Assembly (NCBI GenBank): GCA_944391755.1
Contig: CALXUT010000049.1
Span: forward strand, 1 to 55,162
Direction of reading: 5' to 3'
Length of the DNA: 55,162 nucleotides
DNA from: an uncultured Clostridia bacterium
GTDB taxonomy: Bacteria > Bacillota > Clostridia > TANB77 > CAG-508
Shown: in pieces, positions 48,373-55,162 of the stretch
Layout of the letters: the number at the start of each line of letters is the position of its first letter
Position numbering within the stretch: position 1 is the first letter of the stretch
The notes under the pieces: generated by a model
Database searches by the model: none
What the model was told of the DNA's origin: nothing
Seen by the model: the letters and a program-made list of their open reading frames with translations, nothing else
Program-made: the position numbers and the translations under genes

Positions 48373-49077
48373 TTAATCTTGTAAATTATTTAGTAAATTA
48401 TAGTATTCTGTCATTTTATTTATATTACTAAATTGAATTTTATCATTTTTTATTGACCAATATCTTTGATTTTCTTCTAAAAATTCTTTTATATCTTCCA
48501 ATTTGTCAAGTTTATAATTCAATTCATATTTCTTAGATTGAATTTCATTTTTGATTGCTTGGTATTTTTCTTTCATTCCATCACTAAGCATAATTGTATT
48601 ATATAAATTTATATAATACTCTGTCCTCTGTTTTATATTTTTTTCTTTAATATTATCCAATATATTTTCTTCATTTATTAATTCTTGATATTCCCCATCA
48701 AAACTTTCGCCTTTTTCTCTATAATCCGCTATTATCGTATCTATTGTTTCAAATGATCCATCTACAATATTTTGTGCTGAAAAAATGTCATTAGGATTTA
48801 TTTGTTGATTCATTTCTTCCATATTAGAATATATATTCTCAAATTTTACTAAATATTCTTTTATCGCTTTTTCAACTACTGCGTAATTTCTTTGTGTTTT
48901 TATTTCTGAATTTAGTCCATCTGTTAATATATCTGTTTCTAAAATGGCATTCGCTTCTTCTGTTAGCAAATTTAATTGTGTTTGATTAAAATCATTAAAT
49001 AAATAAGATGTGACGGCTAATGCAACTATTAAAATTACTACAATTATGATTCCTATTATTGTTTTTTTATTTTCCAT
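48373..49077 (-). CDS. Hypothetical membrane-anchored helical protein
   Basis: N-terminal TM, 234 aa. Confidence 0.7.
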   Translation of the reverse strand: MENKKTIIGIIIVVILIVALAVTSYLFNDFNQTQLNLLTEEANAILETDILTDGLNSEIKTQRNYAVVEKAIKEYLVKFENIYSNMEEMNQQINPNDIFSAQNIVDGSFETIDTIIADYREKGESFDGEYQELINEENILDNIKEKNIKQRTEYYINLYNTIMLSDGMKEKYQAIKNEIQSKKYELNYKLDKLEDIKEFLEENQRYWSIKNDKIQFSNINKMTEYYNLLNNLQD

Positions 49078-49100
49078 TTTGTTTTTTCCTCTCTTTTTCT

Positions 49101-50483
49101 TTAGAATTCTATTTTATTTGATATCCAATCTTCTAATTCATCTATTTTTACTCTTATTTGCTCCATTGTATCTCTGTCTCTGATGGTTACGGTTTCATCA
49201 TTTAATGTATCAAAATCTATTGTTACACAATATGGTGTTCCTATCTCATCTTCTCTTCTATAACGCTTTCCTATAGAACCTGTTTCATCATATTCACACA
49301 TAAATTTCTTTGATAATTTATGATATACATCTTCTGCTTTTTCTGATAATTTTTTTGATAAAGGTAATACTGCTACTTTATAAGGAGCTAATGCTGGATG
49401 TAAGTGTAAAACTACTCTTGTATCTCCTTCTCCAATTTCTTCTTCCTCATAACTATTGCATAAAAATGCTAAAGCAACCCTATCTGCACCTAATGATGGT
49501 TCTATACAATATGGTACATATTTTTCGTTTGTTTCCGTGTCTGTATAAGTAAAATCTTCTTTTGATACTTTCATATGACTCTTTAAATCAAAATCTGTTC
49601 TATCGGCAATTCCCCATAGTTCTCCCCATCCAAATGGAAAGGCAAATTCTATATCTGTTGTTGCATTACTATAGTGTGATAATTCTTCTTTAGAATGATC
49701 TCTTAATCTAATATTTTCTTCTTTCATTCCTAATCCTAAAAGCCATTCTTTACAGAATTGTTTCCAGTATTCATGCCATTCTAAATCTGTTCCTGGTTTG
49801 CAGAAAAATTCTAATTCCATTTGTTCAAACTCTCTTGTTCTAAATGTAAAATTTCCAGGTGTTATTTCATTTCTAAATGCTTTTCCGATTTGTGCAATTC
49901 CCATAGGTAATTTTCTTCTTGTTGTTCTCATTACATTTTTAAAATTTACAAATATTCCTTGTGCTGTTTCTGGTCTTAAATAGATTTCTGCTTTTGCATC
50001 TTCTGTTACACCTTGAAATGTTTTAAACATTAAATTGAATTGGCGTATTCCTGTAAAATTGTGTTTACCACAATTTGGGCAACATATATGGTTATCATCC
50101 ATGAATTTTATCATTTGCTCATCTGTCATACCGTCTGCTACCATATCTTTTCCATTTTCATGAGCCCATTCTTCTATTAGTTTATCTGCTCTATGTCTTG
50201 TTTTACATTCCTTACAGTCTATTAATGGATCTGAGAATCCACCTACATGTCCTGATGCAACCCATGTTGTAGGATTCATTAATATTGCTGCATCTAAGCC
50301 TACATTGTATTTACTTTCTTGTATAAATTTTTTTCTCCATAATGCTTTTATGTTATTTTTTAGTTCTACTCCAAGAGGTCCATAATCCCATGTATTTGCT
50401 AAACCTCCATAAATTTCTGAACCTGGATAGATATATCCTCTTGCTTTGCACAAATTTACAATTGTGTCCATTGATTTTACCAT
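49101..50483 (-). CDS. glyQS: Glycine--tRNA ligase (alpha2 type)
   Basis: [32 protein letters not shown]. Confidence 0.95.
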
Positions 50484-52162: not shown

Positions 52163-52205
52163 CTTAAATTTATGTTATTATATTACTACTTAAGGAGATG
52201 ATTTT

Positions 52206-53915
52206 ATGGCATTTGACGGAATCGTAACAAAATCAATTGTTACAGAACTAAAAGATATTATAGGAAGTAAAATAGATAAAATACATGAACCTGATAAAAA
52301 TACAATAATACTTGGTCTATATGCTCAAGGAAAACATTTTGCATTAACACTTTGTGTAGATTCTCATAATTGTAGAATGAATTTAACAACACATTCTAGA
52401 ATAAATCCACTTGTCGCCCCTAATTTTTGTATGCTTCTTAGAAAACATCTAATTGGCGGAAGAATTTCTAATATCACTATGTTAGGCTTAGAAAGGCTTG
52501 TCAATATAGAAATTGAAACATTAAACGAATTTAATGAAATCGAGAAAAAAACATTAATTGTTGAACTTATGGGAAAACATAGTAATATCATTTTAGCAGA
52601 TAAAAAAAATGTAATTATTGATGCATTAAGACATCTTGATTCTTCAAATCATTCATATAGAAATATATTACCATCTCAAAATTACACATTACCAACTTCG
52701 GATAAATTTGATTTTACAGCTTTAAAGAATTTTGAAGATTTTTATAACAAAATTTTAAACATGGATGGTGATTTATCTAAAATCATTTCTAACCAATTTA
52801 CTGGTTTCAGTAAATCTTTTGTAGAAATGTCTATAAAAAAATGTGAAATAAACGCTAACTGTAAAGAGGATCTACAAAAACTTTATAATTACTTTTTAGA
52901 CATCATAAATCATCCTGACAGATTGTATTTCGAAAACATATATAAAGATGATAAGGTTTCAGATTATGCTTTAGTTATAGGTAATTCAAATAGTGAAAAA
53001 TACTCTTTAAATTTTTTTATTGATGATTTTTATTTTGAAAGAGAGACTGTTGAAACTTTTACAAATTATAGAAACAGCATTTTAAAATTAATTTTAGATA
53101 TTTTGAAAAAGTATAATAATCGTTTGCTAAATATAAATGAAAAATTAAAAGAATGTGATAACATGGAAACATATCGATTATATGGAGAACTAATCACTTC
53201 TAATCTTTATCGTTTGAATGATAAACATATTGATAGTATACAATTAGAAAATTATTATGATAACAATTCTCTTATAACAATTCCATTAGATATGAAATAT
53301 TCTCCACAAATGAATGCTAAAAGATATTTTAAAAAATATGCTAAATTAAAAAATGCTTACCAGATTGTATCTAAACAAAAAATTGATACAGAATCTGAAC
53401 TAAATTATATTGAAAGTATTGTTTATGAATTAGAAAATTGTTCTAGTTTAGAAGATGTTCAATCTATTTTTGAAGAAATTAGTGAAAATGTTGTTTTTAA
53501 AGAAAGAGTTAAAAAGAAAGAAAAAAAGCAAAAAGTTTCTAAAAATAAAAAGAATCATTCTTTTTCACCAATAGAATATGAAATTGATGGATGTAAAATT
53601 TATGTTGGCCGAAATAATAGAGAAAATGATTGGCTTACTTTCACTTTTGCCAAAAAAGAGGATCTTTGGTTTCATACAAAAGATATTCATGGAAGTCATG
53701 TGATTTTAAAAGCTAATGATTCCATAACTGATGATATTTTAGTAAAATGTGCTCAAATTGCAGCAAAACATAGTAAAGCAAATGTTTCTTCAAATGTTCC
53801 AGTAGATTATTGTTTTGTTAAATTTGTGAAAAAACCTAATGGTGCAAAACCTGGTATGGTTATCTTTACAAATAACAAAACACTTAATGTGAATCCTCAA
53901 AATTTGAATTTATAA
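52206..53915 (+). CDS. rqcH: NFACT/FbpA/Rqc2 family ribosome quality-control protein
   Basis: MAFDG, FCMLLRKHL, ELMGKHSNIIL, VGRNNREND, WFHTKDIHGSHV, KPNGAKPG. Confidence 0.93.
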   Translation: MAFDGIVTKSIVTELKDIIGSKIDKIHEPDKNTIILGLYAQGKHFALTLCVDSHNCRMNLTTHSRINPLVAPNFCMLLRKHLIGGRISNITMLGLERLVNIEIETLNEFNEIEKKTLIVELMGKHSNIILADKKNVIIDALRHLDSSNHSYRNILPSQNYTLPTSDKFDFTALKNFEDFYNKILNMDGDLSKIISNQFTGFSKSFVEMSIKKCEINANCKEDLQKLYNYFLDIINHPDRLYFENIYKDDKVSDYALVIGNSNSEKYSLNFFIDDFYFERETVETFTNYRNSILKLILDILKKYNNRLLNINEKLKECDNMETYRLYGELITSNLYRLNDKHIDSIQLENYYDNNSLITIPLDMKYSPQMNAKRYFKKYAKLKNAYQIVSKQKIDTESELNYIESIVYELENCSSLEDVQSIFEEISENVVFKERVKKKEKKQKVSKNKKNHSFSPIEYEIDGCKIYVGRNNRENDWLTFTFAKKEDLWFHTKDIHGSHVILKANDSITDDILVKCAQIAAKHSKANVSSNVPVDYCFVKFVKKPNGAKPGMVIFTNNKTLNVNPQNLNL

Positions 53916-53971: not shown

Positions 53972-54427
53972 TTATATAAATAAAAATTTTATGACAAGTA
54001 CCAACACTGTCATGGCTGTCATTGCCGTATCCATAAACCCTTCTGTGCTTTCTCCTGCTTCATCAACTACAGAAATTTCATAAGATTTTGTTTCAGATAT
54101 TTTAAAATAGGTTTCTATATTTTTTATTTCATTTTCAGCTAAATTTCCTATCTCTAAATACTGTGTTCCTAAATGATTATCTATATCTGAATATAAATCC
54201 ACTTTTATGAACTTACCACTTAAATTTTCACCTTCTGCAGTTAATTTTATTCTTCCATTCACCTTTGTTGATTGTACTTCTACTACCTGGATTCCTTCTG
54301 GAATATTCCCTTTTTGATTCATATCTTTATACATTGAATCTATTCCTACATTTATTAATATATCAGATATAATCCAAAATAATATTAACAATATTGCATA
54401 CTTTACAAATCTTTTTACAGTATCCAT
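53972..54427 (-). CDS. Hypothetical membrane protein, possible FxLYD-like Ig domain
   Basis: N- and C-terminal TM, VDLYS..LGTQ..NLA. Confidence 0.7.
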   Translation of the reverse strand: MDTVKRFVKYAILLILFWIISDILINVGIDSMYKDMNQKGNIPEGIQVVEVQSTKVNGRIKLTAEGENLSGKFIKVDLYSDIDNHLGTQYLEIGNLAENEIKNIETYFKISETKSYEISVVDEAGESTEGFMDTAMTAMTVLVLVIKFLFI

Positions 54428-54451
54428 ATTTTTCTCCTCGTATAATGAACA

Positions 54452-54660
54452 TATAGTCCATTATATATTTTTTTATTTTTTAAAATTTTATATAATATCT
54501 ATATAGACTCTGTGGATTGGTGTTTTTCTCTATCGCTTGACGATTTTCTTAAGGCTCCAACCACAGATGTTTGTTAAATTGTTAATTAGTTAGATAACGC
54601 ATGACGTTTTATTTAGAACGAGGCTACATTCAACAAACATTTTGTGGATCACATTGTCTA
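54452..54660 (+). ncRNA. Putative IS110 bridge RNA
   Basis: TATAAT at 54441-54446, 5' hairpin (54460-54496), two stem/internal-loop/stem domains at 54510-54566 and 54567-54640. Confidence 0.72.
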
Positions 54661-54686
54661 AATTTATTTTAAAAGGAGTAATCGTT

Positions 54687-55162
54687 ATGATTTATGTTGG
54701 TATCGATGTTGCAAAGGATAAACATGATTGCTTTGCAATGAACTCTGATGGAGAAATCTTAATTGAAAACTTTATTTTTCAGAATAATGTTAATGGATTT
54801 AATTTGTTCTTCAATTCTATTTCTCAATTTGATGAAAGTTTTGATAATATTAAAGTAGGACTTGAAGCTACTGGTCACTACAGCAATAATCTCCTTAACT
54901 TTCTGACATCTAAAGGATTTAATGTCTTCGTCATTAATCCACTACAAACTAATCTTTTCAGAAAAGGTCAAAGCCTTAGAAAGACTAAAACAGATAAGTT
55001 AGATTCTCGTTTTATTGCTACAATGCTTATCACAGATAACTTAAAGCCCTACTCTAATTTATCTTACCATATTTCTGAGTTAAAGTCACTAGTTAGACAT
55101 AGATTTCGTTTAATTGAGGAACGTTCTAAATTCAAAGTTTCTCTTTCTAGACTTGTTACAAT
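54687..55162 (+). CDS. IS110 family DEDD transposase/recombinase, N-terminal part (not in ORF track)
   Basis: Manual translation MIYVGIDVAKDKHD...VGLEATGHY...INP...KTKTDKLDS, open to the window end; SD AAGGAG. Confidence 0.93.
   Translation, partial: MIYVGIDVAKDKHDCFAMNSDGEILIENFIFQNNVNGFNLFFNSISQFDESFDNIKVGLEATGHYSNNLLNFLTSKGFNVFVINPLQTNLFRKGQSLRKTKTDKLDSRFIATMLITDNLKPYSNLSYHISELKSLVRHRFRLIEERSKFKVSLSRLVT

Follow-up and report, generated by a model that had tools for sequence, protein, structure and literature searches.

The window analysed here is the whole of contig CALXUT010000049.1 (C49; 55,162 nucleotides, nt), part of a 1.48-Mb assembly of 51 contigs (GCA_944391755.1) from an uncultured Clostridia bacterium of the CAG-508 lineage. 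At its 3' end, on the forward strand, lies the left part of an insertion sequence (IS) of the IS110 family (54439..55162; 724 nt, cut by the contig end), in which the region of a predicted bridge RNA is followed by the start of a transposase gene. To its left, on the reverse strand, is a host gene of 151 amino acids (53972..54427) with an N-terminal hydrophobic stretch. We interpret 54439-55162 as the left end of an IS621-like IS110 element from a lineage in which RNA guides direct insertion to Shine-Dalgarno (SD) sequences, and we place the probability of this interpretation at about 0.88. A preliminary description, made from the letters of the window, had proposed much the same; its observation, the bridge-RNA element and the SD-aimed lineage stand, whereas its core, its register and the right flank that it predicted do not. 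The strings, stems and loops that it listed were all recovered where it had placed them.

Transposase, element ends and bridge RNA anatomy

The transposase gene (54687..55162, forward strand) begins with the ATG at 54687 and runs for 158 codons in a frame that is open to the contig end, encoding the DEDD/RuvC-like N-terminus of the protein. Its own SD (AAGGAG, 54673..54678) is kept across the alignment of related copies. Pfam family PF01548 (DEDD_Tnp_IS110) matches residues 4-156 with an E-value of 9.2e-41, and residues D7, E60, D103 and D106 fall within GID, LEATG and KTDKLD motifs; the counterparts given for IS621 are D11, E60, D102 and D105 (PMC11208158). The window stops at codon 158, and the C-terminal Tnp domain is represented by a full relative (L002), which carries Transposase_20 (PF02371, E 1.5e-21). 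By analogy with S241 of IS621, the serine of the QSG stretch would be the catalytic one. The Pfam match, together with a canonical RNA anatomy 5' of the transposase gene, upholds the earlier assignment of the locus to the IS110 bridge-RNA elements.

The ends of the element were fixed with 54 related copies from three collections. Two near-full copies (78-79% identity), in which homology starts at 54437, came from a DNA search of 61 related genomes, and a degenerate pattern over the target-loop stem yielded 52 of the copies (35 from genome contigs and, of the window subtype, 17 from metagenome contigs). Duplicate loci (L043, L044, L048) and loci with flanks shorter than 20 nt (L055, L078, L089) were dropped before counting, and the counts of left junctions below refer to 49 unique insertions, namely 25 in an SD group, which is defined by the inner loop CTTGA and includes the window, and 24 in a sister group, group A.

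A core dinucleotide CT, at 54437..54438 in the window, is present at both ends of the element. It stands before CGTATAAT at every left junction of the SD group (25/25) and at 23 of the 24 in group A, the sole left junction without it being that of L031 (group A), which reads TT; CT likewise follows ...TAGTTAGT in 31/31 right ends examined. Copies with both junctions span CT-CGTATAAT... to ...TTGAC(N)TCATATAGTTAGT-CT, and full-length relatives of this kind measure 1543-1566 bp; a few group A copies reach ~1.9-2.05 kb and one measures 1.1 kb. A common short core at both ends with no target duplication is a trait of the IS110 group, and it is seen in the CT ends of 31 copies. No inverted repeat was noted at the ends, though no repeat search was run. 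The junctions of the relatives agree with the proposed order of left target, core and right donor at the left junction. The core itself had been put at about CCT, but this cannot be so because the donor reads T-CT and only CT is common to donor and target; the extra C is position 7 of the target, and the extra G in the guides corresponds to the handshake guide discussed below.

Between the left end and the transposase gene, the sequence predicts a bridge RNA of ~190 nt, encoded on the forward strand. It opens with a 5' stem-loop (54441..54465, TATAATGAAC / GTCCATTATA) and continues with two loop domains. The target-binding loop domain (54510..54566) is closed by an outer stem, CTGTGG (54510-15) / CCACAG (54561-66), and contains an inner stem-loop (54532-54544) formed by ATCG (54532-35) and CGAT (54541-44). 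The 9 nt on the 5' side of this inner stem are the left target guide and core (TTTTTCT-CT, 54523..54531), while the 3' side (54548..54554) consists of the right target guide CTTA, the core complement AG (54552-53) and a handshake guide G (54554). The donor-binding loop domain (54567..54640) is built in the same manner from an outer stem, ATGTTTGTT (54567-75) / AACAAACAT (54632-40), and an inner stem-loop (54596-54608) of AACG (54596-99) and CGTT (54605-08). Its left donor guide TAGTTAG (54587..54593) is identical to the right end ...TAGTTAGT-CT; on the 3' side, at 54618..54623, the right donor guide ACGAG, which complements CT-CGT at 54437-41, is followed by a handshake guide G. Both 3' loop strands contain AGGCT.

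In an RNA alignment of 37 distinct copies, 95.5% of the cells in the five helices are paired, compared with 26-51% in controls in which the 3' partner was slid by 1-3 columns. Three pairs across the five helices are altered on both sides: one in the 5' stem-loop (helix 1; 85.5% of cells paired), where the change occurs in 7 sequences, and two in the outer stem of the donor loop (helix 4; 99.4% paired). Both inner stems and five of the six outer pairs of the target loop never vary, and these invariant stems are uninformative on pairing because they hold no variation. Folding of the single sequence gave a z-score of -2.7; its minimum-energy structure pairs the two target guides with each other and is likewise uninformative.

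Covariation between the loops and the DNA that they match is the decisive evidence for a bridge RNA. Guides and flanks were compared by counting matches against 20000 shuffled pairings. Across the 49 unique insertions, the left guide matches its own flank at 298 of 343 positions, against 179 in shuffled pairings, and no shuffle scored as high; the same holds within the SD group (140/175, against 123.9 with a standard deviation of 3.2; 0/20000 as high). The right guide matches the right flank at 84/124 positions in the 31 copies with right ends (51.1 shuffled), and for the first 3 nt in the SD group the matches number 31 of 42 against 21.3, a score equalled in 10 of the 20000 shuffles. Compensation is also found on the donor side, where L082 combines a right donor AGT with the guide ACTAG and L092 combines TGT with ACAAG. 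Tolerance of mismatches in the SD group is uneven, with positions 1-6 being loose (many copies carry 1-4 mismatches there) and position 7 and the core being strict. We envisage a mechanism in which the insertion site would be read by the target-binding loop, with the 9 nt that precede the inner stem specifying left target and core CT and the 3' strand complementing the core and 2-4 nt of the right target, while the donor-binding loop would read the joined ends of the element (...TAGTTAG / CT-CGT...).

The loops carry one further base of interest. In IS621, as described in PMC11208158, a handshake guide comes to pair, once strands have been exchanged, with position 7 of the other DNA, and by analogy the G that follows AG in both 3' loop strands is the handshake guide here. 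In the donor loop, targets with C at position 7 go with a handshake G, and those of group A, with A at position 7, go with U; the G of the window pairs with the target C at 54436. The donor-loop side obeys the IS621 rule, and the target-loop side obeys it only in group A (A with donor T7).

The ends of the element also appear to divide a promoter between them. An orphan -10 hexamer, TATAAT, lies at 54441..54446 on the forward strand, where CCTCGT (54436-54441), the reverse complement of ACGAGG at 54618-54623, runs into it. A promoter scan of 54437-54750 found no complete sigma-70-like promoter on either strand. The orphan hexamer is explained by a -35 element (TTGACT) in the right end, which is brought upstream of it only by circularisation or joining of the ends; across a junction made through the core, the spacing from TTGACT to TATAAT is 17 nt in the C33 copy introduced below and 18 nt in L002. 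Joining of the ends would thus place the -35 17-18 nt upstream of 54441-46, and the preliminary description's view that the promoter is completed on circularisation fits this sequence arrangement well. A -35 in the right end and a -10 in the left end are also described for IS621 (PMC11208158). We infer that the element forms circles, that its RNA is transcribed and that it is active.

Several other features of the RNA region were observed in passing. A second TATAAT (54491-54496) lies ~14 nt upstream of the target-loop stem and is invariant or nearly so in the 37 copies; in the integrated element, it might act as an internal promoter element from which the RNA is made. The stretch TTTTGTGGATCACATTGTCT (54641-54660), between the donor loop and the ribosome-binding site (RBS) of the transposase, is nearly invariant in both groups. 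One metagenomic copy, L083, has AATT in the 3' strand of its target loop where the others have AAGG, and its own junctions are still CT; its right guide may be mutated, or the change may be tolerated. Finally, L100 (the L005 region, G048:C3), a relative with 54% protein identity, has a target-loop guide AATCCTC-CT that matches its SD-type flank. In the 330 nt upstream of its transposase start, the target loop lies only 35 nt from the ATG, and the whole 4.2-kb locus shows no recognisable donor loop. Such an element may naturally possess a target loop alone, or its RNA may be split.

Insertion before the host gene and Shine-Dalgarno sites across the lineage

Comparison of the junctions of the 54 related copies places the left target, positions 1-7 (TTTTCTC), at 54430..54436 on the forward strand. 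Left target and core jointly form the reverse complement of the SD and spacer of the host gene (AGGAGAAAA), whose start codon lies 9 nt from the core. The host gene belongs to no Pfam family, and its DNA has matches in 86 of 201 genomes of the genus, the genome of the window (G000) included. Elsewhere in this genome, the element was traced only to the end of a second contig, C33, which overlaps the last 529 nt of the window and then continues to the right end of the element, with the right-end core at C33 49609 followed by TATTTTAC.... The C33 flank carries a conserved TTGCAA-17-TATAAT block that points at the host gene. In IS-free relatives (G174, G189, G178), the host-gene ortholog is followed within ~20-45 nt by a homolog of the C33 right flank, and sequence from 54439 onward is lacking. 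Because these relatives join the host gene to the C33 flank homolog, C49 and C33 are the two sides of one insertion site.

The pre-insertion site reads TTTTCTC-CT-TATT on the forward strand of the window and AATA-AG-GAGAAAA-ATATG on the strand of the gene, where a canonical SD stands at a distance of 9 nt from the ATG; at the corresponding position, G174 has the allele AAA-AG-GAGAATT-AAATATG. We thus propose that the window copy would have entered TTTTCTC-CT-TATT before gene 53972..54427. On the sequences compared, the element did insert here, separating the gene from its promoter. The host gene keeps ACGAGGAGAAAAATATG, and its promoter is now 1.55 kb away, reading into the element antisense to the transposase. 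The IS-free alleles and the C33 flank thereby confirm that the element sits in the SD of this gene with the RBS preserved and the native promoter separated, as had been proposed. No outward promoter from the left end toward the host gene passed the scan, and a search of both strands of the element gave no terminator-like site; read-through from the native TTGCAA-17-TATAAT promoter to the host gene is possible. We infer that the insertion affects the host gene and may silence it, and the earlier characterisation of such insertions as non-disruptive is unsupported. On the C33 side, a stretch of ~970 nt between the promoter block and a peroxiredoxin-like gene (C33 ~48590-49560; reverse-complement bases 1328-2300) has no counterpart at the syntenic position in G174 and G189, and contains a minus-strand hydrophobic open reading frame (ORF).

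This site differs from the one first predicted. The preliminary description took the core as CCT and read a guide TTTTTCT(C) against 54429-54436, giving an empty site TTTTTCT-CCT-TAAG with a right flank of CCT-TAAG. In its favour are the literal 8-nt identity between 54523-54530 and 54429-54436, both of which read TTTTTCTC, the 6-nt complementarity between 54618-23 and 54436-41, and the fact that the left target, right target and right donor guides of the SD group all carry CCT or AGG. The identity of the string is thus genuine, but its register is one base off the junction that the homologs define: the donor end reads T-CT, and in 24/24 other SD-group copies the guide ends with CT aligned. 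Moreover, the right flank on C33 begins CT-TATT, with two of the four predicted right-target bases present, the 8-mer is common (16 occurrences in the window against 13.3 expected), and target position 7 and the handshake guides explain the third base. We regard the CCT register as very improbable, and the reading with core CT and target TTTTCTC-CT-TATT is used in what follows.

The association with SD sites extends across the lineage. All 25 independent insertions of the SD group have the complement of a start codon 8-10 nt to the left of the core on the opposite strand (23 CAT, 1 CAC, 1 CAA), which confirms at the level of the family the proposal that these elements go to SD sites. None of the three outcomes that the preliminary description named as fatal to its reading is fully borne out, given IS-free alleles that lack the sequence from 54439 on and further copies that sit at SD sites. 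In 22 of the 25, a reading frame of 55 codons or more, or one that has not closed where the contig ends, begins at this start codon (two of these extend for only 15 and 21 codons); L058, L076 and L084 are the exceptions. More distant relatives from other genera of the order (52-75% protein identity) also lie at or beside the SD of a divergently read gene, as in L096, where the guide matches CTTATCC-CT at 7/7 positions, and L006, which lies 4-5 nt from the ATG. Copies of group A (L002, L003, L030-L062) often lie 2-4 nt on the upstream side of an SD whose gene points away from the left end (e.g. the left junctions of L061 and L059); in 9 of the 24 unique insertions of this group, an SD is found within 60 nt together with a long ORF (60 codons or more, or 20 or more where the contig ends before the frame does).

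The guides themselves are consistent with such a preference. Left guides of the SD group are TTTTTTC-CT (8 copies), TTTTCTC-CT (7), TTTCCTC-CT (4), TGTCCTC-CT (2) and four singletons, while group A has CAAATTA-CT or CAACTTA-CT with a right target ATT. In terms of RNA, the left guides of the proposed anti-SD clade (see below) end in ...CCUCCU, ...UCUCCU or ...UUUCCU. The target loop of the lineage would represent the reverse complement of an SD site, namely a T-rich spacer, CTC, CT and then T or A. Since the loop spells the SD complement, the element would be expected to land on the upstream border of an SD whose gene lies on the opposite strand, and insertion would leave AGGAG attached to the gene and move its promoter 1.55 kb away. 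The bases 5' of the left guide (ATTGGTG) do not match the CAT region, and the guide does not read the start codon. The rqcH RBS, cited earlier as a further match to the predicted target, is indeed present as CTTAAGGAGA at 52189-52198, before the rqcH ATG at 52206. Beyond the two contig ends (C49, C33), no copy was found in the window's own genome.

Possible selection, possible decay and other points against the reading

A number of observations weigh against the interpretation of a guide-programmed, SD-targeting element, and these fall into three sets: the specificity of the guides, the fit of the RNA to the IS621 scheme, and the state of the window copy.

In the genome, the exact guide-matching sequence TTTTCTCCT occurs at 155 sites, of which 39 are at gene starts, and with one mismatch allowed it occurs at 1842 sites, of which 182 are at gene starts. 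When the right-target base or bases are included, the gene-start fraction rises to 43% at most; among fixed insertions it is 88-100%. Specificity of the guide is thus necessary and not sufficient, because so few of the guide-matching sites, and nearly all of the fixed insertions, lie at gene starts; selection against intragenic insertions, or further determinants, must contribute to the SD location. In a stronger form of this argument, the SD location would be mainly the product of selection after insertion, with the element entering any T-rich ...TC-CT site and only insertions ahead of genes surviving. The contrast between 10-43% of guide-matching sites and 22-25 of 25 fixed insertions speaks for it, as does the tolerance of 1-4 mismatches at guide positions 1-6 in many copies. 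Against it, the sequence of the guides is itself complementary to AGGAG or AGGA with the spacer, and TTTCCTC, TTTTATC, TTTTTTC and CTTATCC each have a perfectly matching site in at least one copy and covary with the SD variant. We consider this stronger form unlikely, while noting that selection and guide programming are not exclusive.

The RNA does not follow the IS621 scheme at every point. A search of Rfam with 54300-55162 gave five weak matches with E-values from 3 to 9.4, far under the gathering scores, and none to a bridge-RNA family. The left donor guide fits the right end over 7 nt, leaving positions 7-8 unmatched, and the core is not reached. In the SD group, the handshake G of the target loop is able to pair with C7 of its own target and forms no more than a wobble with donor T7. 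Base pairing of the handshake with the cognate DNA locked the IS621 complex and blocked strand exchange (PMC11208158), and the SD-group arrangement is therefore a real departure from IS621.

The window copy is itself an outlier within its group. Its left guide TTTTTCT-CT fits the flank TTTTCTC-CT at only 4/7 positions in register, with mismatches at positions 5-7, and it is the sole copy of the 25 with a mismatch at position 7 (the other 24/24 match). Its right guide predicts TAAG where the flank reads TATT. A guide of the TTTTCTC-CT type, as found in seven other copies, would fit the window site 9/9. The exact 9-mer of the window guide has 189 sites in the genome, of which 3 are at gene starts, and the window copy is on this account no longer programmed to SDs. 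The claim that the guide of this particular copy is aimed at an SD consequently fails, as it is the one guide of 25 that does not fit one, whereas the same claim holds for the lineage. Relative to its nearest copies, L076 and L084 from metagenome contigs, the bridge-RNA region of the window differs at 1 of 206 scaffold columns and at 3 of 9 guide positions, and the change looks like one focused on the guide rather than general decay. Either the left guide would have been altered at positions 5-7 after insertion, or insertion would have been guided by the RNA of another copy. The 5' region of the window transposase is at most 94.9% identical to that of any other collected copy.

The two halves of the element also disagree. 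Over the 529-nt overlap, window 54634-55162 and C33 50359-50886 are 93.8% identical, and the C33 copy (L024, ~49650-49730) has a 76-nt frameshifting deletion relative to L035, which removes approximately residues 311-336 of the transposase, the QSG stretch included. A strain mixture, a mosaic element or an assembly chimera are possible sources of the mismatch. The deletion, a left guide that no longer fits its own site, and the detection of one insertion only in an assembly that is 88% complete are all in keeping with a dead relic, in which guide change and deletion alike reflect decay and neither movement nor a functional RNA remains. Such a relic is a serious possibility, somewhat short of an even chance. 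It sits less easily with the contrast between 1/206 scaffold and 3/9 guide differences from L076 and L084, with the 158 transposase codons of the window being open and their DEDD residues in place, and with the 6% difference between the contig ends, by which the deletion may belong to another variant.

Implications and comparison with known systems

We propose no new mechanism; the element is a new example of known bridge recombination combined with known targeting of translation signals. It offers an RNA-level explanation for an old observation, the preference of some IS110-family elements for translation initiation signals, in that the preference would reside in a 9-nt guide complementary to the SD. 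Moreover, 25 independent insertions with 8 guide variants, from which mismatch tolerance can be read, form a natural data set for bridge-RNA engineering, and include a handshake arrangement that the IS621 work would predict to be inhibitory. For the annotation of gut Clostridia, these insertions form a class that severs genes from their promoters while leaving coding sequence and RBS untouched.

More tentatively, we hypothesize that a clade of IS110 elements in gut Clostridia uses its target loop as an anti-SD mimic, is naturally reprogrammed, and acts as a reversible promoter switch through insertion and precise excision, although we think it doubtful that all of this holds. Natural reprogramming is suggested because the guide evolves far faster than the scaffold (3/9 against 1/206). 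If the hypothesis were true, the universal RBS would serve as a landing pad with hundreds of sites per host, at which the element would lie antisense to the gene with the SD intact, and the self-pairing target-loop handshake would be a deviation from the IS621 rule that is tolerated or even has a function.

Preference for translation signals has been described for other members of the family. The target motif of IS900 from Mycobacterium avium, CATGNNNNNNTCTCCTT, is the reverse complement of an SD plus start codon (PMC8141618), and IS900 and IS901 insert upstream of genes at translation initiation signals (PMC2942039, citing Doran 1997 and Inglis 2003). As here, where the orientation is the same in 25/25 insertions, these elements have the reverse complement of SD and start codon as their target, in one orientation. 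Their reported insertion point lies between SD and start codon (PMC2942039), whereas the crossover here is at the upstream edge of the SD and AGGAG stays with the gene. IS900 is also described as carrying a complementary-strand ORF, hed (PMC8141618); no such ORF of at least 40 amino acids is found in the 724 nt of 54439-55162. In the literature searched, we found no paper tying bridge-RNA guides to the SD; supplements lay outside this search, and a natural-target table among those of Durrant 2024 could already list SD targets. The same search returned no account of the IS900 preference in terms of bridge-RNA guides.

In the IS1111 group the guide RNA lies 3' of the transposase gene. The seekRNA systems of IS1111 and ISEc11, as described by Siddiquee 2024 (PMC11187229), share with the present element a DEDD transposase and a short non-coding RNA that matches the target flanks. 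The IS1111 group is described as having subterminal inverted repeats, which the IS110 type lacks; here, the RNA is 5' of the gene. CazIS110-1 from Caloranaerobacter azorensis (bioRxiv 10.1101/2025.10.25.684509) is described as an IS110 element of a clostridial host whose bridge RNA is experimentally active.

The nearest parallel is IS621 of Escherichia coli, for which the bridge RNA and recombinase were described by Durrant 2024 (PMC11208160) and Hiraizumi 2024 (PMC11208158), and the likeness drawn here is one between descriptions. The target here is the SD region of genes, whereas that described for IS621 is the REP (repetitive extragenic palindromic) elements; unlike in IS621, moreover, the target-loop handshake can pair with its own target and the left donor guide falls short of the core. 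In their general plan the two systems nevertheless agree, as both are described by a recombinase with a DEDD domain and (for the present element, as seen in the relative L002) a Tnp domain, a 5' non-coding RNA with a 5' stem-loop, a target loop and a donor loop, a left guide of 9 nt, CT core included, a short right guide, and a donor loop that reads the joined ends. Both also split the -35 and -10 elements over their ends, and in both the handshake base of the donor loop pairs with position 7 of the target.

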